This document shows, in pieces, positions 2,923 to 51,351 of a stretch of 64,000 nucleotides of DNA. This DNA is from an uncultured Pseudomonadota bacterium (GTDB lineage Bacteria > Oederibacteriota > Muellerivitia > Muellerivitales > Muellerivitaceae): positions 160,001 to 224,000 of the forward strand of contig CAWIIP010000002.1 of the NCBI GenBank assembly GCA_963836235.1, given 5' to 3'. The notes under the pieces are model-generated. The model had not been told where the DNA came from and made no database searches. It worked only from the letters and a program-made list of their open reading frames with translations. The position numbers and the translations under genes were made by a program. Each line of letters starts with the position of its first letter. The first letter of the stretch is position 1.

Positions 2923-3073
2923 GTTCCTGCTTTACGATTTCCGAAATAGTAAGCCGCCTGCCCCTCGAAGCTTCCTTGGAGATCTCCTCTTCCATCATTT
3001 CCTTGTGCATCGGCAGGACCATCGCGTGTAAACGAACGAGCTTGATCCTTTTGTTTTCCTTTGCTTGTTCCAT
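2888..3073 (-). CDS. Small ribbon-helix-helix-like DNA-binding protein
   Basis: 61 aa; beta-strand then two helices ending TISEIVKQELD, CopG/Arc-like pattern. Confidence 0.45.
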   Translation of the reverse strand: MEQAKENKRIKLVRLHAMVLPMHKEMMEEEISKEASRGRRLTISEIVKQELDARYQRKNKV

Positions 3074-3402
3074 GGAACCTCGCGGGATTACACATTAGAT
3101 GTGGTGATAGTGTGGTGAGCGTGTGCGAGGGTTTTAACATGAGAAAAAAATTATGCGAAAGGAAAAATGAAAATAATTCTCAAACCGAGAATGACGGACA
3201 GGCTTTGTGCGGATATCGTTTCGATGAGGAAAAGGGTATTAGTTGGACAGAAAAGTTGCGGAAAATAATTTAACCGCTCAATGAAGATAAATTCCTCCCG
3301 CCCGAATTCATTAGTGTTCAATGACTACAGACGGAGTAGGAACGATTTATTACAGAAAATTATTAAGGAAAAGTGAAAAACGTTATGAGGTGGTTGTTGA
3401 AG

Positions 3403-3717
3403 TCACTTGAGGTAGAAGCCGCGGTGGGTGAGAAAGTTGTCAACACGCTCCAAAACCAAAGTGACTGCTTCCCCGACCGCTGGTTCTCCGGTTTCTTTTA
3501 AAATGATCGAATTGATTAATTCAAGCAGATCTATTCGGACGGTTTTGTGCCGGGCGATTAGGTCTTCGTGGGAGAGAAGCACTTCTTCCATTGCAATTAA
3601 AGGGGGGTACACCTGGTCAAAAGTGGCCGTTGTCAGACGGGTGTCCAAGATGCGCCTTATTAAGGCCAAATTGTCCATGGAACACCTATGAGGTAAACGG
3701 TATATCCAAGAGGTCAA
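3403..3717 (-). CDS. Hypothetical protein
   Basis: ORF divergent from the recombinase; no recognisable motif. Confidence 0.4.
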   Translation of the reverse strand: MTSWIYRLPHRCSMDNLALIRRILDTRLTTATFDQVYPPLIAMEEVLLSHEDLIARHKTVRIDLLELINSIILKETGEPAVGEAVTLVLERVDNFLTHRGFYLK

Positions 3718-3826
3718 TTTGTCAATTTTAGGGGGTAATGGAATACTCAGGCGCTCCGGATCGCCAATAAGAGGGGCCGCTACGGCGAAGAATTAAGGTT
3801 CGTTTAGCCCCTCAAAGGGAGAGGCA

Positions 3827-4663
3827 ATGAAAACAAACCTTAAATTAAAACCGTCCATACAAGCCGTCCTTTATGTACGGGTATCTTCTAAAGAACAAGA
3901 AAAAGGGGGGTTTTCAATCCCCGCCCAATTGAGATTGCTTCGGCAGTACGGGGAAACCCAGGGGTTTACCATTGTTAAAGAATTCCGGGACGTGGAAACC
4001 GCCAAGCAATCCGGCCGGGAGGGGTTTGGGGAGATGGTTAATTTCCTTATCAAGAATACGAACTGCAAATATTTACTGGTCGAAAAGACCGACCGTCTTT
4101 ACCGAAATTTCAAGGATTACGTTTCATTAGAGGATATGGATGTGGAGATCCACCTGGTCAAGGAAGGGTCCATCGTTTCGAATAATTCCAAATCGGCGGA
4201 AAAGTTTATCCATGGGATAAAAGTCTTAATGGCAAAAAATTACATCGATAACCTCTCGGAGGAAACGCGAAAAGGGATGACTGAAAAGGCAGAACAAGGG
4301 ATTTGGCCCTCGTTAGCCCCGGTTGGTTACAAGAATGTTTTGGGAAAAGCCGGGAAAAGAACAATAAAACCTGACTCCCGGTCTGCTCCTCTTGTTATCC
4401 GCCTTTTCAAAACCTATTCATCGGGAAATTATTCCCTAGAAGGGATGGCACGAAAGTTTAAAGGAAAAGGTTTTGTTAGTGCTAAAAGGCCCTTGCACAG
4501 GAGTACCGTCCATAAAATTCTTTCGAACCAAATGTATTCAGGGCATTTCAATTGGAAGGGGAAACTTTACCAGGGGAAATATCCGCCCTTAATATCGGAA
4601 AAATTATGGGAAAAGGTACAAGGAAAATTGAGGACCAGGTGCACAACCAAATTGCAGGTTTAG
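3827..4663 (+). CDS. Serine recombinase (resolvase catalytic domain + Recombinase domain; lacks zinc ribbon/coiled coil)
   Basis: YVRVSS catalytic Ser motif, DRLYR, LSEETRKGM, APVGY, HKILSNQMYSG, YPPLISEKLWEKVQ; stops right after the recombinase domain; RBS GGGAGAGG. Confidence 0.93.
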   Translation: MKTNLKLKPSIQAVLYVRVSSKEQEKGGFSIPAQLRLLRQYGETQGFTIVKEFRDVETAKQSGREGFGEMVNFLIKNTNCKYLLVEKTDRLYRNFKDYVSLEDMDVEIHLVKEGSIVSNNSKSAEKFIHGIKVLMAKNYIDNLSEETRKGMTEKAEQGIWPSLAPVGYKNVLGKAGKRTIKPDSRSAPLVIRLFKTYSSGNYSLEGMARKFKGKGFVSAKRPLHRSTVHKILSNQMYSGHFNWKGKLYQGKYPPLISEKLWEKVQGKLRTRCTTKLQV

Positions 4664-4698
4664 GGCCTTCCACGACCCCAAAAAGGGTCAAGGGGGTC

Positions 4699-4724
4699 GT
4701 CCCCTAGGGGTCCCCATCGTGGAC
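4699..4724. repeat. Palindromic candidate recombination site 1 (GTCCCCTAGGGG-TC-CCCATCGTGGAC)
   Basis: 26-bp imperfect palindrome, one of three direct copies, 35 bp after the recombinase stop. Confidence 0.8.
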
Positions 4725-4735
4725 AAATACCTTTT

Positions 4736-5755
4736 TTAGTCGCCATTCACCTGTTGATAGCGCTTTGTTTTAAGATCAATGCCCCAACTATCTGTAACCC
4801 TTCCCGACCCAGCTCCGGGATTCTGTTCGATATCAATGTAGTAATAATCTTCTTTTATTTTTTTTGAAGTAACTGACTGAATAACATTCAACACATTTTC
4901 AGTTAATATCATTGCTTGGGTAGGCTTTCGGGTATCGATCAAATAGGTTTTGTCGTAAATCATCCAAAGAATTAAAGGGGTATCATTAATTTCCAAGTAG
5001 TAACCCGCCCCGGTAGAATTGTCATTATCCAAGCCTAAGCTTTTAAACCTTTTCTTTAAATCAATATTTTCATCGTCGTCGCCGTCAATATCGTAAACCT
5101 CGGCGAACCTTGAATCTGGAAAAATAATCTTCGCCTTAACGAGGTCTGATGAAAGCTTAACCAAATCTTCCTTGAACGTTATTACGGTTGTGGGTTCGAA
5201 ATCGGTTTCATCATTCAATCCCTTAACTTTCGATTCAGACTCAGTCGAAGCCTGATAAGAATTTTGAAATGCTTGCATCCTTAAAATATCCCTAAATTTC
5301 GGATCGCCTTTAACTTTTGCCTGTAGCGATGGGTCGAATTTCAATGCCAAAACCAACTCACGAATCGCCAAATTTGTGTTTTGTGATGAAAGCCCGTTTT
5401 TGAAAACCCAATAACTCAAAGCTAAATTGTAATGAGCCAGGGAGGATTGCGGATTTAACTTTATTGCTTTTTTATAAGTCTCTTCGGCTAACGCGGGTTG
5501 GTTGTTTCGATAATAGGCATATCCTAAATAGATGAATGCTTTTTCGTTCTTATCATTTAATTCAATTGCACTTTGATAAGTTTTGATCGCCCCTAAGTAA
5601 TTCTTTTCTGATATGTATTTTTTTCCAATAATTAAACATTTTTTATATTCATCGGAAACGCTTCCACTACTTTCCGCCGACAAAAGAGGACAAAGTGGAA
5701 TGAAGAGGCACAAAAATACAAATTGAATTTTAACGTAGTCTTTTTTTCGCGTCAT
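4736..5755 (-). CDS. Secreted TPR-repeat protein (cassette gene 1)
   Basis: Signal peptide, TPR motifs (AFIYLGYAYY, AHYNLALSY); AT-rich; start MTRKK at 5755. Confidence 0.8.
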   Translation of the reverse strand: MTRKKDYVKIQFVFLCLFIPLCPLLSAESSGSVSDEYKKCLIIGKKYISEKNYLGAIKTYQSAIELNDKNEKAFIYLGYAYYRNNQPALAEETYKKAIKLNPQSSLAHYNLALSYWVFKNGLSSQNTNLAIRELVLALKFDPSLQAKVKGDPKFRDILRMQAFQNSYQASTESESKVKGLNDETDFEPTTVITFKEDLVKLSSDLVKAKIIFPDSRFAEVYDIDGDDDENIDLKKRFKSLGLDNDNSTGAGYYLEINDTPLILWMIYDKTYLIDTRKPTQAMILTENVLNVIQSVTSKKIKEDYYYIDIEQNPGAGSGRVTDSWGIDLKTKRYQQVNGD

Positions 5756-5792
5756 AAAATCACTTTTCCTGTAAAACAGCAACCTCTGGGTT

Positions 5793-5818
5793 GTCCACGA
5801 CGGGTCCCCGTCGTGGAC
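5793..5818. repeat. Palindromic candidate recombination site 2 (GTCCACGACGGG-TC-CCCGTCGTGGAC)
   Basis: Perfect 12-bp inverted arms around TC, between the two cassette genes. Confidence 0.85.
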
Positions 5819-5830
5819 AGGTAGAATCAA

Positions 5831-7960
5831 TTATTTAAATGACCCCAGGATATAGGCTTTGAAAAAATCATAGGGGGGATTTCCCTCAGCCCCCGGTGTA
5901 TAGTTCCCGGCCGTGATGCCGCAAACCAGATCCAATTCCGGGACCACGAAAATAAATTGTCCCCCACGGCCGGAGGCATAGAAAACCTTGGTTTTCCTGC
6001 CCTTAAAAGGCATCTGTTCCTCCCACCAGAGGTAGCCGTAATCCCCGCCACCTTGGGTCGTTGCCTGGAGCTTGGTGGATTCTTCCACCCATTTTTCCGA
6101 AACCACTTGTTGGCCGTTCCATTTCCCTTTCTGAAAAAATAATTGGCCCAGCTTGGCCATGTCGCGCGGCTTCAGCCAAAGACTTCCGCCAACCTCGGTT
6201 ACCTGGTGGGGGCCGCTCTTTCCCCAACTATGTTCTTGGATACCAAGGGGATCAAAAAGGTATTTCTGGGCGAATGCCGGTATGGACATTCCACTTTTGC
6301 GGGCAATGATGGCACCCAGAGGTTCCATGCAGGAAGTGCAATAGCCCCAATGCTCCCCGGGGCGGTATTTCGAGGGGAGCGAGAAAACAAAGTCCAGCCA
6401 ATCGGATGTGCCCAACATCTCCCCCATGTAGTCCGATGTCCAACCATCGTTGATCCCGATAGTCATGCTCAGAAGGTGCTTGAGGAGGATCTTGTCTTTT
6501 TGGTCCGTCCAGTCCTTGGCACGGTATTCGGGGAAATAGTCGAAGAGCTTGTTATTCACGTTCACCCAGCCATGGTCCTGGGCGATCCCGAAGAGGATGG
6601 AAAGAACGGATTTGCTGGCAGATTGTAACTGGTGGGTGTCCCCGGGCTCTTCACCCATGAAATACTCGTCTAGGATCAATTTTCCATTTTTGACGACCGA
6701 CAAACCCTCGATGTTTGAAAGACGCCCGTTCAATATCTCATCGATGCCCCTAGCCACTACCTGGGGGTCCAAGGCGCTTTCCAAAAGGTTCCCCACCGGC
6801 CAGCCGTCGGCCAGGGTTTGGGGAAGCTGGTAGCTGTACTCCGTGACAGCCCCGCCGTCCGCGTCCACACGGGGCAGGAGGTAATCCAAGCCTCTTTTAA
6901 AACTGAGGGGGTGGCCGGCTTCATTCCATTGGCCATGGCCGGTCAAGGAATCACCGGCCTCGTTCAGGGTCACGCTCGCTTGGACGAGGCCATTCTCCAG
7001 CAATAAGGTCCGCCCCTTCCGAGTGACATTGAACCAATCGTTCATGCCGTTCCCAAACTGATCCAGGTCGTGGAAATAGGCCAGGTATTTCCCCTTTAGC
7101 TTTTTGATTCCCAGGCAGATCCGTTCGCGGCCGTCCAGCCCATCGACCCTCCCATACCAGTAACCCGTCAATTCCTGGGAAGCCTTCGGTTGTTCGGTTG
7201 GAAGAGTGGCGAAATCACGGTTGAAACTCAAATTGAAATCAAAATCCTTAGATTCCCCCGCCTTCCAAATCCAGGGCTTATCAAGGGATTCACCGTGGCT
7301 CAGGATCACCGAAAGGTTGCTATACCATTCCCATTGCCGGTAGTCCTGGAGGATCGCGGTGAGCCCTGTTCCGGCAAATCGGACCTTGAGCTCCCCATGA
7401 TGGATTGCGGGTCCAAGGGAAAGACCGTCCAGCCCTCCCGTTGCAATCAGGACATTGGAAGTTTTTTTCCATGGGATCTTCCCTTTGCTTTTTGAAAATC
7501 GATAGTCGGTTTCCGACCAGTCGGCGTAGGGAAAAGCAAGGTTTACCCGGGCGGCAATGACCGTGACCGGGCTCAAAGCGGTCATAACCGTATGGATATG
7601 GATTTCCGTTTTTTGGACATCCATGCTGGTCTTGATCCCAACCCTTTCCTTGTCCGTGATCTCGGTGGAACCGTCATAGCTACCTTCCGCATCCCCCGAT
7701 ACGAAGTAATGGTCCTTCCATCCCTCGGTGGAAACGATTGGGAGGACTATGAGCACCTGGCCCTGGGCATCGCCAATGCTGACCGCCCCGTTCCCGTAGG
7801 CCTGGACTTCCAAAGGTCCCAAGAACCGATTGTCCACGGGGGCAGTGGTGGCCGGTTCCGTGACAGGCGGAGGTGGGATCTCATCGTCATCCGCGTAAGC
7901 CCGTCCAACGGCAGTCAGGAGGGCGAGCCCGAGGAAAAACGAATAGATAAGTTTATTCAT
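5831..7960 (-). CDS. Secreted serine hydrolase, class C beta-lactamase-like family, with N-terminal extension (cassette gene 2)
   Basis: Signal peptide; SASK (SxxK), LLSMT, PGEHWGY, RDMAKLG, YGYLWW, GRGGQ motifs. Confidence 0.88.
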   Translation of the reverse strand: MNKLIYSFFLGLALLTAVGRAYADDDEIPPPPVTEPATTAPVDNRFLGPLEVQAYGNGAVSIGDAQGQVLIVLPIVSTEGWKDHYFVSGDAEGSYDGSTEITDKERVGIKTSMDVQKTEIHIHTVMTALSPVTVIAARVNLAFPYADWSETDYRFSKSKGKIPWKKTSNVLIATGGLDGLSLGPAIHHGELKVRFAGTGLTAILQDYRQWEWYSNLSVILSHGESLDKPWIWKAGESKDFDFNLSFNRDFATLPTEQPKASQELTGYWYGRVDGLDGRERICLGIKKLKGKYLAYFHDLDQFGNGMNDWFNVTRKGRTLLLENGLVQASVTLNEAGDSLTGHGQWNEAGHPLSFKRGLDYLLPRVDADGGAVTEYSYQLPQTLADGWPVGNLLESALDPQVVARGIDEILNGRLSNIEGLSVVKNGKLILDEYFMGEEPGDTHQLQSASKSVLSILFGIAQDHGWVNVNNKLFDYFPEYRAKDWTDQKDKILLKHLLSMTIGINDGWTSDYMGEMLGTSDWLDFVFSLPSKYRPGEHWGYCTSCMEPLGAIIARKSGMSIPAFAQKYLFDPLGIQEHSWGKSGPHQVTEVGGSLWLKPRDMAKLGQLFFQKGKWNGQQVVSEKWVEESTKLQATTQGGGDYGYLWWEEQMPFKGRKTKVFYASGRGGQFIFVVPELDLVCGITAGNYTPGAEGNPPYDFFKAYILGSFK

Positions 7961-8009
7961 TTTAGATTTATCAATTGATAGCTCATTCCAGTTTTAATGG
8001 CGTTACCTT

Positions 8010-8035
8010 GTCCATGACGGGTCCCCCAAGGGGAC
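8010..8035. repeat. Palindromic candidate recombination site 3 (GTCCATGACGGG-TC-CCCCAAGGGGAC)
   Basis: Third copy, 49 bp upstream of the hydrolase start codon. Confidence 0.8.
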
Positions 8036-8173
8036 AACCATTTTCCTCGTAATTTACTCGATTTTACACCTTTTGAAGCATATCGGGGTGTGGTTCTTGC
8101 GTTGATTACCCCTTGCCAAATCGAGGACTGGGTTCGCTGGGCGTTAAAATTTCTTTTTTCAAAACCGACCCCT

Positions 8174-8968
8174 TTAACCCTTTGGGCCGACCCATTTCTG
8201 AAACTTGTAACGAGAGTTTGAGGGATTCGAAGGTTCCCCCGTGCTAATCGGGACACGTTTGCAGCCCCTTTTGCGGAACTGTACCCCGACCGTATTTTCA
8301 TGCAAGTGGACACCCCATTTTTCCAGGATTAAATCCCTGACCTGCGTTAGGTTCCAATGGACGGCCTTAATGCCGAATTTTTCCGGGCTGAACTCCAACC
8401 AGCCAACCGTTTCCCGCCACTGTTCTTCCGTTAAGGGTGAAGTCTGCTCCGGGCGTTTCCTTTTCGCCATTTTCCTCCGGAAGGAAGGCGTTCTCCAAAG
8501 TTTTCGAAGCACCTTGCTGCGCCGCCGACGGAAGCTTTTCGTTCCACTAATTCGCCTGGACATTTCCGACATCTCGGCCTTGTAAGTAGGGTCCGACCAT
8601 CTGCCCCGCATATAGACCTGATGTTTCCCCCTCATTTCCCCGGACTTCCACGCCTTTTTCATTCCCTGGACAATTTTTTTCCTAAGCCGCGGGTTCTTCC
8701 ATAGCTTTTTTCCCCTTTTAGAGTTTTTCTTAATTTCATCGGGAGTATGTTTCCGACCGATATTATGGGTGTTTCCGATGTGGATTTTTGAAAGGATTTG
8801 TCTGGTTTCGGGGCTGATAATGGTGCGAATTTTAAAATCTTTTATGTATTCAGCCTGTGTGAGGGAATGTTTGAAAAAAAGATGGGTGTGGCTGATGCTC
8901 CTGAAGGATTTATGGCAGATTTTGCAGTCGATCAAGGGTATTCCAGTCAAGGTTAGATTCACGACCAA
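8174..8968 (-). CDS. Basic DNA-binding protein: C2H2-like zinc finger, NUMOD3-like repeats, IS630-type winged HTH
   Basis: CKIC..HTHLFFKH; GRKHTPDEIKKNS; repeated W-x-x-P basic units; HWNLTQVRDLILEKWGV. Confidence 0.6.
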   Translation of the reverse strand: MVVNLTLTGIPLIDCKICHKSFRSISHTHLFFKHSLTQAEYIKDFKIRTIISPETRQILSKIHIGNTHNIGRKHTPDEIKKNSKRGKKLWKNPRLRKKIVQGMKKAWKSGEMRGKHQVYMRGRWSDPTYKAEMSEMSRRISGTKSFRRRRSKVLRKLWRTPSFRRKMAKRKRPEQTSPLTEEQWRETVGWLEFSPEKFGIKAVHWNLTQVRDLILEKWGVHLHENTVGVQFRKRGCKRVPISTGEPSNPSNSRYKFQKWVGPKG

Positions 8969-8995
8969 CGATGTGGGCGAAGCATGGCGAATAAG

Positions 8996-9571
8996 TCATT
9001 CAGGCTGGCCTTTTCCGAAAGGAACCGCCACAACGGTCCTTTTACTTGATTGGAGAACCCAACCGATTCCTGACTTGTAATAACGGCCCAACCACTGTCG
9101 GATAAGGCCTGGGCTAACTCCGAGCCGTTTTCCGACCTCGTTTACTTTCATCCCCTTCGCAAGCCAGGAAAGCGCCTGTAACTTTTCCTTCACCCAGGGC
9201 CGATCCTCTTTTTCCAAGAAAGATTTAATCTCTTGTGTGTTCATATTTCGTTCTGTGCGAGCGTTGAAATAACCTTTTTGGTTCCAAATCTTTGACAGCG
9301 CATGGAAAGGAATCTTTTGTTCAAGGAGCTTCGCTATTGATGAAAAAGAACCATCAAAAAATACCGAAAGTTTCAGCAGGACATGAACATCCCGTGATCC
9401 TTCCCGCTCCCATCGCTTCCATTCCTCAAGGGTGCATCCACAACTAGCGGCGGCCTGTTTTGGGGATAGGTTCTTTTTCAGCCGAAGTTCCTGGATCACT
9501 TCCCCGATTTTTCGTTCAAACTCTTGGCGGGTCAATATCCCCTTGTCTGGCTTCTTTGATGATGATTTCAC
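8996..9571 (-). CDS. XRE HTH + second (IS630-like) HTH protein
   Basis: IGEVIQELRLKKNLS..WKRWE; KLQALSWLAKGMKVNEVGKRLGVS..IRQWLGRY; paralog at 24615-25223. Confidence 0.7.
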   Translation of the reverse strand: MKSSSKKPDKGILTRQEFERKIGEVIQELRLKKNLSPKQAAASCGCTLEEWKRWEREGSRDVHVLLKLSVFFDGSFSSIAKLLEQKIPFHALSKIWNQKGYFNARTERNMNTQEIKSFLEKEDRPWVKEKLQALSWLAKGMKVNEVGKRLGVSPGLIRQWLGRYYKSGIGWVLQSSKRTVVAVPFGKGQPE

Positions 9572-9574
9572 CGA

Positions 9575-10243
9575 TTATTTATTTTTAAGGAGTTTTTCAA
9601 AGAAATTCTTGGTTTTTGCAACTTCCGCCCTCGCATGAGCAATTGGGGCGGGTTTAACATTAACCTGGTTCCCGATGTTGTCCTCGGGACCGGGTTCTGG
9701 ATCGGGCGTTGAAGGGAAAATCTTCGACTTAAACTTATCCAAAACCTCGGAAAGAGGAAGTATCCGGTCGGATGCCTTTAGTAATTCTGAGGGCTGGGAA
9801 TCCTTGAAAAAACCGATCTCCACGGCTTTGCCTAGTTCCTTCACCGCATTAAGTACCGGTGAGTATTCCGAATCTTCGGTCACTACAATGGCCGTGTCAA
9901 AAAGGCCGCGGGCGGCGAAGTAGACCAAATCTGCCGAAAATATTGTTTTTTCACCCTTTGGTTTAAAGTTTCCATCCGCTCCTGAGACAAGCCGTCCAAG
10001 GCGTAAATCCAGGTAAGGGGTCTTGCGGAGGGAATCAAAAAAGGATTGTTGCGTTTTGGATTGCTCGGTTGCAATGACGGGATCATAGGCGGAATTGTAA
10101 TAATAGGTGCGAACAAGTTCCCGGTCGGGCCCGGCCAGGGCTTTGGAAAGCTCGTAATAGTCCACGCGGGTGGGGTAGTTGTTCCGCTTCAAGGCGAAGT
10201 AGAAGTTGCTACCGTCGATGAAAATACAAACACGGTTCTTCAT
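9575..10243 (-). CDS. NYN (LabA/DUF88) domain protein
   Basis: IFIDGSNFY, LVRTYYY, AIVVTEDSEY..LGKAVE. Confidence 0.9.
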   Translation of the reverse strand: MKNRVCIFIDGSNFYFALKRNNYPTRVDYYELSKALAGPDRELVRTYYYNSAYDPVIATEQSKTQQSFFDSLRKTPYLDLRLGRLVSGADGNFKPKGEKTIFSADLVYFAARGLFDTAIVVTEDSEYSPVLNAVKELGKAVEIGFFKDSQPSELLKASDRILPLSEVLDKFKSKIFPSTPDPEPGPEDNIGNQVNVKPAPIAHARAEVAKTKNFFEKLLKNK

Positions 10244-12483: not shown

Positions 12484-15400
12484 TTACCGCAGGACCAGCA
12501 ATTTGAGGATATTCCGGCCCCGGTTGGTTTGCACCACCACATAGTAAAGGCCGTTGGCCAAGGGCGTTCCCCACTCATCGGCCAAAGGAATGGGCACGCT
12601 GACCCCCGGTTGGACATTGTAATAAGTTAAATCCGCTACCTTCCGGAAGGCGGTCGTGAAGATCTCGATGCTCACGTTCGATTCAAACGTCAACCCCGGA
12701 TTGAGCTGAGCCACTCCCCCCGTGGAAACGGGGTTGGGATAAAGCACTGGTTTGGCCGGAGGGGCCGGGGTCCGGGTAGCCGTGGCCGTCGGCGGTGGCG
12801 TTAAAGTTTTAGTGGCCGTTGGGGTGGCCGACGCACTGGGGGTATAAGTCGGCGTGGCGGCGGCGATGGTGACCGTGGCGCCTGGAACGGGCAATCCGGT
12901 AAAGAGAAGGGCCTGGCCGTTGCTTCCCGTGGCGTCCGTGGCGCTGAAGGAATAGTTCCCCGCCGGTGAAGAGGAGGAGAAGTTCGCGGTGACTTCGTAG
13001 GTCACTGCTCCATTGGCCCCCGGAATGGCGCTGTTGAAGCTGAGGGTGGCGTCCGGCCCGCTGAAGGCGGCGGTGGCGATAAGCGTTCCATTGGCTGATA
13101 AATTGATCGATGTGATCCCGGTGGGAGGGGTTCCCGTCTCGGAGAGGGTGATACTGGTGAGCGTCACCGGATTGCCGCTGGGATTGTTCACCTGGATCTG
13201 TTGGATGGGTACCCCGGAAGCCCCCGGAATTTGGATGGAGTTACCCGGCGGGCTCAACCCTTGCGAGGCCGAAACCGTCACCGGCGTGGGGCTGAAAGTG
13301 GGAGTCACCGACGCCGTTGAAGTGGCGGTTTGAGTTGGCGAAGCCGAAGGCGTAGCCGTGGCGGTAGCTGTGTTTGCCGGCGTTAGCGTCCGCGTGAGGG
13401 TAGGGGTCGCCGTAGTCGAAGCCGTGGCGGTGGAAGTGGGGGTCAAGGTACTGGTCCTGGTCGGGGTTCCGGTGTTGACCAGCGTCTCGGTAGCCGTGCC
13501 CGTAGGAGTACTTGACGGCGTAGCCGTCAATGTATTGGTCGGCGTAACCGTCGGCGTAGTGGTGGCCGTTGCCGTCGAGGTGCCGGTGGGGCTGTTGGTG
13601 GCCGTCCCGGTCGGGGTCAACGAAGAGGTGGTAGTTGGGCTGTTGCTGGCGGTATTCGTGGCCGTAACGGTGGCGGTTGAGGTCGGGGTTCCGGTGTTGA
13701 CCAGCGTCGCGGTAGCCGTGCCCGTAGGAGTACTTGACGGCGTAGCCGTCAATGTATTGGCCGGCGTAACCGTCGGCGTATGGGTGGCCGTTGCCGTCGA
13801 GGTGCCGGTGGGGCTGTTGGTGGCTGTCCCGGTCGGGGTCAATGGGGAGGTGGCAGTTGGGCTGTTGCTGGCGGTATTCGTGGTGGTTGCCGTGGCGGTA
13901 CGGGTTGCGGTGGATGTCGCGGTTAAAGTCGCCGTATTGGGCAGGGTAGTCGTGGGCGTAGGGCTAAGGGTTGGGGAGAAGGTGGAAGTAGGGCTGTTGC
14001 TGGGTGTGTTCGTGGCCGTTTTGGTGGCCGTGCCCGTAGGAGTACTTGATGGCGTAGCCGTCAATGTATTCGTCGCGGTGCTGGCAGCCGTATTCGTTGG
14101 GCTGTTCATCGGGGTATTCGTGGACGTTGGAGTGGGGGTCGAAGTCGATGTATTCGTGGGGCTGTTCGTTGCGGTCTTGGTGGGCGTATTGGTCACGGTG
14201 GGTGTGGCGGTATTCGTGGCCGTGGGGGTGGCCGTATGGCTGGGTGTGGCGGTGGGGGTATTCGTGGGAGTGTTGGTCCGGCTAAAGGTGGGGGTGCTGG
14301 AGGCGGTGCTGGTCGCCGTACTGGTGGGAGTGCTGGTTTTCGTGGGGGTAACCGTGGCCGTGGCGGTTTTTGTGGCGGTCGCCGTCGCGGTCGCGGTCGG
14401 CGTGGATGTTTTGGTGAAGGACGCCGTGGCGGTGGGGGTCGCCGTGGCGCCGCTGGAGGAGCAACCTGGATGGGTAAGTCCCTTCAGCCAGCCATAGACC
14501 TGTTGGCCTTCATAAGACGTCAGCACCCAGCCGCTGCCGGTGGAAACCGGGGCGGACAGAGTTGAGGACCAGGCCGAAAGCAGGAGAGGCGTCGCCGAGA
14601 TATCCATGTCCCAAGCCATGCCCCCATAGACGTAATTCTTGTCGTTTGTGCCGTTCATGAAGGTAATCACGCTGTTCACGAAAGTGCCGCCGTCGGTGGT
14701 ATTGGCCGAATTCCCGAATTCCTCGATGAACACCGGGCCGTAGGTGAGGGCCGTATCGATGTTGGACTCCCAACCCGCCGGGGTGTTGGTGCCCTTGTTG
14801 TTGTAGATATGGGCCGAGTAGACGATGCCGTTGCCTCCGGCCTTATCCACCACAGGACTCATGCCCACGTAATAATAGGAATACTGCTGGCCGCCGACGA
14901 TGCAGATGTTTTCGGCGTTGGTGCCGCTGGCCAGGGTGCTGCCGGCGCTGGCGGTAGTGCCCCGGATGGTGTTCACGATGGACTGAAGGCCGGGCGTGGT
15001 AAAGCCCTCGGAGGCCGTGCCTCCGTTTAACCAGACGGTCCAGGAAGTTGTGTAGGGCTCGTTGAAGGTGTCGAAGAGCACGGAGGGGTTGTTGGCGTAA
15101 CGGGCGGCGACGCTGGCCCAGAAAACCAGGCTGTTCTCATCAGGCATGGAGTATTGCCCGGTGGCCGAGCCCGTGGGCCCGTCGCCGGACCATTGCAGGT
15201 CCAGGTCGCAATAGATGTTGTTGGCGTTGCAGTAGGCCACGAGGGAGTCCACGAAGCTTTGGTATCCCGATTGGCTGGTGGAACCCCTGGAGCTTTGCGC
15301 GTTGCCATCCCACCAGTCCTGGTCCAGGGGGATGCGGACGCAATTGACATTCCAATATTTGACCGCCTCCTGCAGCATTGTCAGGACCCCATTGCCGCCG

Positions 15401-50945: not shown

Positions 50946-51351
50946 TTTATACTCACCCCCTAAAATAAGTCGGCAAAAATCTTCCCGGGCAATGAAAAGG
51001 TTTTAACCGGAATTTCCAACATGACCTTGCCCGTCTAAACCGCCAAGTATAATTTCTCAAGTATACCATGCCCAACTTTTTCAACCATTGCCAAGCTTTT
51101 CGGACCAATGGTGGGAAGAAGAACCCTTTAAATCGAGATTTCAGGAGCTTAAAAGTCCAATAGAATAACCGGAAAAAGTTTGTCCATTGATATGAATGGG
51201 CCTGTCATACGGGCAGTTTTCCATTCATGTTTTTTCTTCCCAGGTACCCGCGAAAAGCCTTTGCCCCGAAAGCTGAGCATATATCAACTTAATCGCACTA
51301 GTTCTTTGATTACTACATCTCCCCGTCATGGACCCTTCTTAATTCTAGCCA

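Follow-up and report, generated by a model that had tools for sequence, protein, structure and literature searches.

Three short sites delimit two single-gene cassettes

Here, we analysed a 64,000-nucleotide stretch of DNA (the window, G000:C2:160001-224000) from the genome of a bacterium of an uncultured soil lineage (G000; 3,967,731 bases in 5 contigs), in which three short, related sites delimit two genes on the minus strand (Table 1). Each site is 26 bp long and consists of a 12-nt arm, a TC dinucleotide and a second 12-nt arm. A search with the symmetric pattern GTCC-N5-GGG-NN-CCC-N5-GGAC gave three exact matches in the window, all on the plus strand and all with a TC centre, and a fourth match with 2 mismatches at 13454; shuffled versions of the window held 0.46 matches on average, and 4 were reached by 1 of 100 shuffles.

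The arms of these sites are of two types, A (GTCCCCTWGGGG; pattern GTCCCCT[AT]GGGG) and B, arranged in the order A/B-gene-B/B-gene-B/A. The two outer arms, read as the site 1 left arm and as the reverse complement of the site 3 right arm, are identical at 11 of 12 positions. The arm types, their order and this agreement are as an earlier note on this DNA had described them, and the presence of three sites with hybrid outer arms is confirmed. The same note held that type A occurs only at the outer ends, which proved true of the whole 3.97-Mb genome, where the A arm is found once per strand, at exactly these two places. Site 2 was returned as a perfect palindrome by an inverted-repeat scan and folds into a hairpin at -14.9 kcal/mol (z -5.16), a value matched by none of 200 shuffles, while sites 1 and 3 form no hairpin across their arms (z -0.04 and -0.37, no better than shuffles). 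The two cassettes differ in G+C content from each other and from their flanks, which are at about 0.47.

Table 1. Features of the window and other features of the genomes discussed in the text. Positions without a prefix are those of the window.
Feature	Position	Strand	Description
Serine-recombinase relic	3827..4663	+	278 aa; left flank, converging on the array; Pfam Resolvase and Recombinase
Site 1	4699-4724	+	A/B hybrid: GTCCCCTAGGGG-TC-CCCATCGTGGAC
Cassette 1	4713..5804	-	Centre to centre, boundaries predicted from the sites; G+C 0.37
Cassette-1 gene	4739..5755	-	TPR-repeat protein, 339 aa, ATG at 5755; stop 11 nt from site 1
Site 2	5793-5818	+	B/B: GTCCACGACGGG-TC-CCCGTCGTGGAC
Cassette 2	5807..8021	-	Centre to centre, boundaries predicted from the sites; G+C 0.54
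Cassette-2 gene	5831..7960	-	709 aa, C-terminal beta-lactamase-fold serine hydrolase domain; stop 12 nt from site 2
Site 3	8010-8035	+	B/A hybrid: GTCCATGACGGG-TC-CCCCAAGGGGAC
Right-flank open reading frame (ORF)	8174..8968	-	264 aa, weak IS630-like match; within a 5.65-kb block lacking in the syntenic locus of G001
Xer-like tyrosine recombinase	G000:C1:328834-329895 (L156 2838-3896)		353 aa; best candidate enzyme
Y1 (IS200-like) genes	G000:C2:2047689-2048630, C5:263448-264407, C2:1841972-1842925		313-319 aa
Group II introns in split sites	G000:C2:1476545-1478492 (L008 6345-8292); G000:C1:223032; L027 ~1300-1440; L162 132-2040; L165 3650 and 7558

The sites form co-oriented arrays throughout the genome

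The symmetric pattern occurs 47 times in the genome. A weight matrix trained on these 47 sites and run over the genome returned 75 sites, as compared to 0 in a shuffled genome, and 11 further half-sites carry the conserved arm only, which brings the total to about 86; an alternative search with 12-nt arms at 2 mismatches was dropped in favour of the matrix, its 558 matches being mostly due to chance. Fifteen clusters hold at least two sites, and 11 of them hold 3-14, spaced at roughly 0.2-4 kb. All sites point the same way in 14 of the 15 clusters. The genes of the arrays lie on the strand opposite to the site orientation, as given by the TC centre, and in this gene orientation a frame of at least 60 codons ends no more than 120 nt upstream of 71 of the 86 sites, compared with 28 of 86 in the mirror orientation. 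The sites are extragenic, lie 3-98 nt behind stop codons and mostly follow single-gene units. Arrays of the same layout were seen on inspection of six other genomes (G010, G012, G021, G022, G023 and G001).

The centre is TC in 46 of the 47 symmetric-pattern sites, and GGG-TC-CCC is invariant across sites, while the flanks contribute little information to the weight matrix. The two arms of a site are not equally constrained. The conserved arm (CCCGTCGTGGAC in the TC orientation) stands just past the stop codon of a cassette, and the more variable one ahead of the start codon. The right arm has at most one change in its 5-mer in 45 of 47 sites and the left arm in 35 of 47; in 37 of the 86 sites, the left arm departs from the consensus at no fewer than 3 of its 12 positions, and strongly deviant right arms are rare (2 of the 47 symmetric-pattern sites).

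The cassettes encode BrnT, HigB, MazF and PIN toxin-antitoxin pairs, GNAT acetyltransferases, HAD hydrolases, immunity-type proteins, regulators and many proteins without known function. There are about a dozen arrays per genome, and we found no attI or Pc platform. Identical genes for a DDE transposase (459 aa; G000:C1:372133-373512 and C5:253985-255364) and for an IS66-family transposase (474 aa; C5:2875-4299 and C2:1203253-1204677) lie in or beside arrays. The window also holds an isolated half-site at 51308-51333, with the conserved arm only (TC CCCGTCATGGAC) and 1 mismatch from the 14-mer core; about 1.3 such matches are estimated to occur by chance genome-wide.

Cassettes recur in different arrays with edges inside the sites

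Several cassettes were found at more than one place. The NHL-repeat cassette (1245 nt, 377-aa protein) is 100% identical in arrays on contigs C2 and C4, and the identity spans its two sites from outer edge to outer edge and stops there. A BrnT/antitoxin cassette is present in two arrays of G000, recurring from site to site in G000:C5 and in 8 other genomes; the C5 copy has a foreign left arm, and its homology therefore begins at the core. The array at C2:1192000-1202800, compared with 31 family genomes, was matched cassette by cassette, on different contigs elsewhere, and matches ended at sites (query coordinates 1141-1920, 4596-5286, 7187-7820 and 7854-8617). G018, which belongs to another genus, carries an outer-membrane-protein cassette at about 97% identity; unrelated DNA lies beyond its left site there, and the arm across the core differs.

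For the array of the window, we turned to sequencing runs, of which six contained 5-14% of sampled words and four were compared with the stretch. Contig 12 of run X5 equals positions 4708-4955 (248 nt, 0 differences), comprising cassette 1, its conserved arm and the core, and before 4708 it carries other letters, which form a C-type arm (GTTCCTTACGGG; see below), so that elsewhere cassette 1 adjoins another half-site. In run X1, contig 6 spans 8007-8180 and takes in site 3 with its A arm plus the right flank; its sequence before 8007 is another one, and the A-arm border therefore persists with another neighbour. The diverging letters of the two contigs gave no informative match in the genome or the loci. 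These sequence comparisons establish that cassettes have moved, with breakpoints inside the sites.

Hybrid and parental sites share one core

A further recurrent arm class, C (GTTCCTTNNGGG, complement CCCNNAAGGAAC), has the same core, GGGTCCCC, which is common to all arm classes. Intact C/C palindromes are present in G012 and G023. The C/C site of G012 (L171 10613-10654, G012:C7), at the end of an array beside a Fic-domain gene, is a 42-nt palindrome with extended arms, AAAGGGTT-GTTCCTTACGGG-TC-CCCGTAAGGAAC-AACCCTTT, perfect save for its TC centre. In 31 family genomes, 36 places were listed and, by reading, assigned as about 21 C/B, 6 B/C and 2 C/C sites, the rest being doubtful; a control with the reversed pattern gave 10 matches in all. 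Both parental arm classes and hybrids are established features of the lineage, and parent palindromes and hybrids around a single 8-bp core are what site-specific exchange within the core would predict. In G000, B arms combine with C arms in one B/C site and two C/B sites. These lie on contig C1 in the order C1:370996 (B/C), C1:399377 and C1:436637 (both C/B), the reverse of the A/B ... B/A of the window; the order would fit a segment with a C/C site entering a B/B site, but the 28 kb between the first two include ATP-synthase genes.

Some sites are split by group II introns (Rfam D1-D4 and domain V-VI matches, with reverse transcriptase/maturase ORFs; Table 1), one end of the intron lying at the centre of the split site. 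An intron-associated foreign arm, TGGCGCGC(T/C)GGG, recurs in G000 and G012, and a like intron is present in G001 and G018. These introns resemble the group IIC-attC introns of integrons; a group IIC intron lineage is reported to insert into the attC recombination sites of integrons (PMC3001079).

Short palindromes behind genes could also be repetitive extragenic palindromic (REP)-like hairpins, such as 3'-end RNA or DNA structures to which a host protein binds, in which case the apparent mobility would be due to homologous recombination between repeats. The extragenic position of the palindromes closely behind stop codons, the three Y1 (IS200-like) transposase genes of the genome and the introns that split the sites are in line with this explanation. 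However, we consider it quite improbable. Hybrid sites are frequent and have non-complementary arms, and therefore cannot be hairpins; breakpoints fall within the 8-bp core, a length insufficient for RecA-type exchange. At least 16 genera share the conserved site sequence, inverted pairs are missing, no T-run follows the hairpin, and a terminator and promoter scan of positions 3000-10000 gave no excess over shuffles. None of the Y1 genes has the sites at its flanks, and their orthologues were not found in site-rich G001, G018, G023, G020 and G013. The earlier note had argued that independent REP copies would not readily produce the pattern, and the non-folding sites 1 and 3, together with the arm classes, bear this out.

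A site-specific recombinase presumably acts on the core

In the mechanism we infer, a cassette would be carried as a circle in which its conserved and variable arms are joined into one site, and a site-specific recombinase would cross over inside the shared core, so that the arms behave as exchangeable half-sites. Sites 1 (A/B) and 3 (B/A) would then be attL/attR-like hybrids that were left after entry into a site with A-type arms, and the entrant would be either one two-cassette circle or two single circles, with B/B sites. As a general mechanism, this cassette and half-site reading is well supported, and we regard it as very probable.

We looked for the enzyme among known recombinase families. 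None of 41 genomes had a match to the integron integrase model (TIGR02249) that attained its cut-off of 265 bits; the best one in G000 has E = 2.3e-10. The genome carries 8 PF00589 genes, none of them IntI-like: six paralogous integrases (366-386 aa), one 425-aa integrase and one Xer-like protein (353 aa; Table 1). The six paralogues (G000:C2:1185612-1186715 and five others) share 57-70% mutual identity, and one of them lies 5.4 kb from the largest array.

Against the XerC and XerD models, which have cut-offs of about 330 bits, the Xer-like protein reaches 169 and 155 bits. The distribution of sites and orthologues was examined in 24 other family genomes, one sister-family genome and, for the rest of the phylum, 16 genomes of eight other families; kin genomes are not independent in these comparisons. 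Orthologues of the Xer-like protein (56-79% identity) are present in 23 of the 24 family genomes and in the sister family, and the best matches of other families reach 27-35%. A single divergent Xer-like recombinase seems to be present in the family, while other families of the phylum often have two XerC/XerD-type matches. The site 17-mer shows a similar distribution: it was found in 21 of the 24 other family genomes and in the single sister-family genome, with one 1-mismatch match in the eight other families, and the reversed 17-mer gave 0-1 match per genome. Since the site reads naturally as 11-6-11 or 9-8-9 with a shared overlap, and because of this phyletic match, we favour a tyrosine recombinase, which would act on an 11-6-11 or 9-8-9 core site, with the Xer-like protein as the first candidate. 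As for a link with dif, we identified no dif site; GC skew was uninformative across the 5 contigs and no site lies near the Xer-like gene; the single site of G024 is within a 2.85-kb insertion and not at a conserved position, and G017 and G019 are without a site.

The 12-2-12 layout of the sites could also be read as that of a serine recombinase cutting at the central TC, for example one of the family of the relic beside site 1. The crossover sites of serine recombinases have a non-palindromic central dinucleotide, with which the TC agrees, and the relic, which is CcrB-like, borders the array in G000 and also in G022, where sites and cassettes follow directly. We nevertheless regard this explanation as very improbable. 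The gene beside site 1 aligns at 49% identity with residues 2-272 of a paralogue of 515 aa. It lacks the C-terminal half with the zinc ribbon and coiled coil, and this missing half was found nowhere in the genome. Similarity also ends at the same residue, about 272, in the orthologues of G001 (281 aa; L027 1477-2322) and G022 (329-aa open frame; L050 2345-3316), so that the relics of three genomes, from two genera, are cut at one residue; a half-site that a group II intron interrupts comes after the gene in G001. The relic is not the working enzyme, and it appears to mark an old array border or an old integration into this gene. Moreover, large serine recombinases have att sites of 40-50 bp, longer than the 26 bp found here. 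With the protein of the window as query, relatives were detected in just 8 of the 24 other family genomes and were not found in site-rich G005, G010, G021, G023 and G016, and G000 itself has one full-length copy of this kind, at G000:C2:1375036-1376583, and one relic. The full-length serine-recombinase ORF and the ORF of the 425-aa integrase both end in tRNA-like translated sequence.

Other candidates for the array enzyme were rejected. The three Y1 genes, considered as REP-associated tyrosine transposases (RAYTs), are flanked by other inverted repeats, one of them by 13-nt repeats (GGGGTCAGTCATC and its complement), and have orthologues in 15 of the 24 family genomes. ParB_N-like paralogues stand beside some arrays and also far from any site, and a recombinase trio beside an array of G012 is merely another mobile element.

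A proposed ancestral site for the window array

Returning to the window, we consider it reasonably probable that its three sites serve recombination in a gene-cassette system specific to the lineage, whose enzyme would cross over in the core, and that sites 1 and 3 are attL/attR-like; for this one locus, the half-site reading is probably right. The attL/attR-type origin proposed in the earlier note gains from the cassette system, the cassette edges inside sites, the hybrids and the C/C parent, while its A/A ancestor was not encountered. The insertion of B/B circles, which the note had placed one after another, is supported in part; two successive single insertions and one two-cassette circle would leave the same sequence, so the order cannot be told.

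The search for the ancestor covered related genomes, metagenome contigs and sequencing runs. In G001, the other genome of the genus, the flanks at 3135-3391 and from 9041 onwards are collinear with the window, and about 750 bp stand in place of a 5.65-kb block that comprises the relic, both cassettes and the 264-aa ORF. The A arm with TC (14-mer) had 4 matches in 3 of the 30 other family genomes, none of them in a site context, and the 22-mer spanning the left junction had 0 matches in the metagenome contigs. No joints were seen in the four sequencing runs, most of the stretch being uncovered there, hence this is no evidence either way. The A/A ancestor is therefore proposed from internal evidence only.

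This internal evidence lies mainly in the right arm of site 3, an oddity of a rare kind, because it matches the left arm of site 1. Its 5-mer equals that of the site 1 left arm at 4 of 5 positions and agrees with the left arms of the other 46 symmetric-pattern sites at 2 of 5 at most. It could be that the cassette system is real and the A/A match coincidental, with an ordinary variable left arm at site 1, a mutated or secondarily recombined right arm at site 3, and an A/A target that never existed. The frequency with which left arms stray from the consensus (37 of the 86 sites, as above) and the lack of an A/A site or an A arm in context in the 30 other family genomes and the metagenome contigs speak for such a coincidence, and the G4/C4 blocks beside the core (GGGGGTCGTCCCCTAGGGGTCCCC) could arise by local slippage or core copying. 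On the other hand, strongly deviant right arms are as rare as 2 in 47, the one at site 3 resembles the left arm of its own array far more closely than any other, and both outer 12-mers are unique in 3.97 Mb. We therefore regard coincidence as unlikely, and continue to prefer hybrid sites left by insertion.

Several points weigh against this preference and against the wider proposal. An A/A site is absent from the syntenic locus of G001, where the whole 5.65-kb block is lacking, and neither the empty site nor a one-cassette allele, both predicted by the earlier note, was found in 30 family genomes or the metagenome contigs. The A arms are confined to this locus and, unlike C, do not form a recurrent class. 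Because left arms are so variable, the odd one of site 1 is unremarkable alone, and a random pair of 5-mers agrees at 4 or more of 5 positions with a probability of 16/1024, or about 1.6%, under a uniform model. The evidence from runs X1 and X5 consists of one short, low-depth contig each, and the gene calls are crude (longest ORF). With respect to the enzyme, no recombinase gene recurrently adjoins the arrays of G000 or of the other genomes; the Xer-like gene also occurs in genomes with few or no sites (G017, 0; G019, 0; G024, 1), and its link to the sites is a phyletic coincidence among kin and not proof.

Comparison with known cassette systems

The arrays have much in common with integrons and with clusters of attC sites lacking integron integrases (CALINs): co-oriented arrays of mostly single-gene units, each closely followed by a palindromic site, a typical cassette content (toxin-antitoxin, GNAT, immunity and unknown proteins), the occurrence of one site-bounded cassette in different arrays and genomes, and group II introns that insert into the sites. 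They nevertheless fail on both of the defining features that we tested, namely IntI and attC-type sites. IntI is lacking, and the sites are short (26-30 bp), near-perfect and conserved in sequence, without a GTTRRRY/RYYYAAC motif, whereas attC sites are 55-140 nt long, conserved in structure, and form imperfect R''-L''...L'-R' palindromes with extrahelical bases.

Acinetobacter pdif modules are likewise genes between short dif-like sites with two inverted arms of about 11 bp and a short asymmetric centre, one arm being better conserved. Their sites alternate in orientation and are located on plasmids, while the sites here are direct, in chromosomal arrays of up to 14; flanking sites of the inverted pdif type were not seen, and direct repeats make up 14 of the 15 clusters. 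The driver proposed for pdif modules, a housekeeping Xer recombinase acting in trans, has a possible counterpart here, although the single Xer-like protein of the present lineage is divergent and stays under the cut-offs for XerC and XerD.

REP elements, bacterial interspersed mosaic elements and their RAYTs resemble the present system in the many short extragenic palindromes behind genes, but three features that were tested set the system apart from them. There is no RAYT association and no inverted pairing here, the sequence is conserved family-wide, non-folding hybrid copies exist, and gene-sized units move with the sites. The core sites of the loxP and FRT type also combine inverted arms with an asymmetric overlap, here GGGTCCCC, that gives polarity, and their arms can be swapped as half-sites. 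loxP and FRT are single elements with a dedicated recombinase gene, in contrast to the dozens of sites per genome that organise host gene cassettes here.

Exact 26-mers were found in 98 stretches among the genomes of about 185,000 species, nearly all of them metagenome-assembled genomes titled candidate division FCPU426, with a few titled proteobacterium, Firestonebacteria or simply bacterium; viral contigs gave 0 matches. The genome of the window is therefore probably a member of the FCPU426 lineage. At the level of listings and abstracts, we found no published description of these sites or of cassette arrays in FCPU426. More tentatively, and with less confidence than for the mechanism itself, we suggest that the lineage possesses a family-wide, integron-independent cassette platform of candidate division FCPU426, in which the one divergent, housekeeping Xer-like enzyme, or one of an unknown kind, might shuffle single-gene cassettes among about a dozen chromosomal arrays and between genera, on a 26-30-bp site with arm classes A, B and C around a fixed 8-bp overlap.

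Integrons are the textbook case of the shuffling of single-gene cassettes, and the Xer-dependent modules of Acinetobacter are the main other example. An independent second platform with a simpler site would show cassette arrays to be a convergent solution and not a one-off. The candidate platform lacks IntI and has sites whose conservation extends over at least 16 genera of an uncultured lineage from soil; for experimental study, it would also provide a compact site of about 28 bp whose arms are modular. If the half-site logic is confirmed, the halves of sites would record insertion history, which could then be read from sequence alone.

Genes and sequences beside the array

The listed 364-aa frame of the cassette-1 gene has a TTG start upstream of site 2 and extends across the site. 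The cassette-1 protein has one relative, 75% identical, on a 1.6-kb metagenome contig that carries a degenerate site upstream of the gene and none downstream. A tRNA search of window positions 1-30000 found none. Just left of site 1, a AAAAAGGGTCAAGG string at window positions 4680-4693 resembles the inverted repeat of one Y1 gene. Beyond the right flank, positions 8996-10243 of the window hold a helix-turn-helix (HTH) gene and an NYN-domain gene, and, since the NYN portion has matches of 65-91% identity at many places in most family genomes, it may belong to a multi-copy element.

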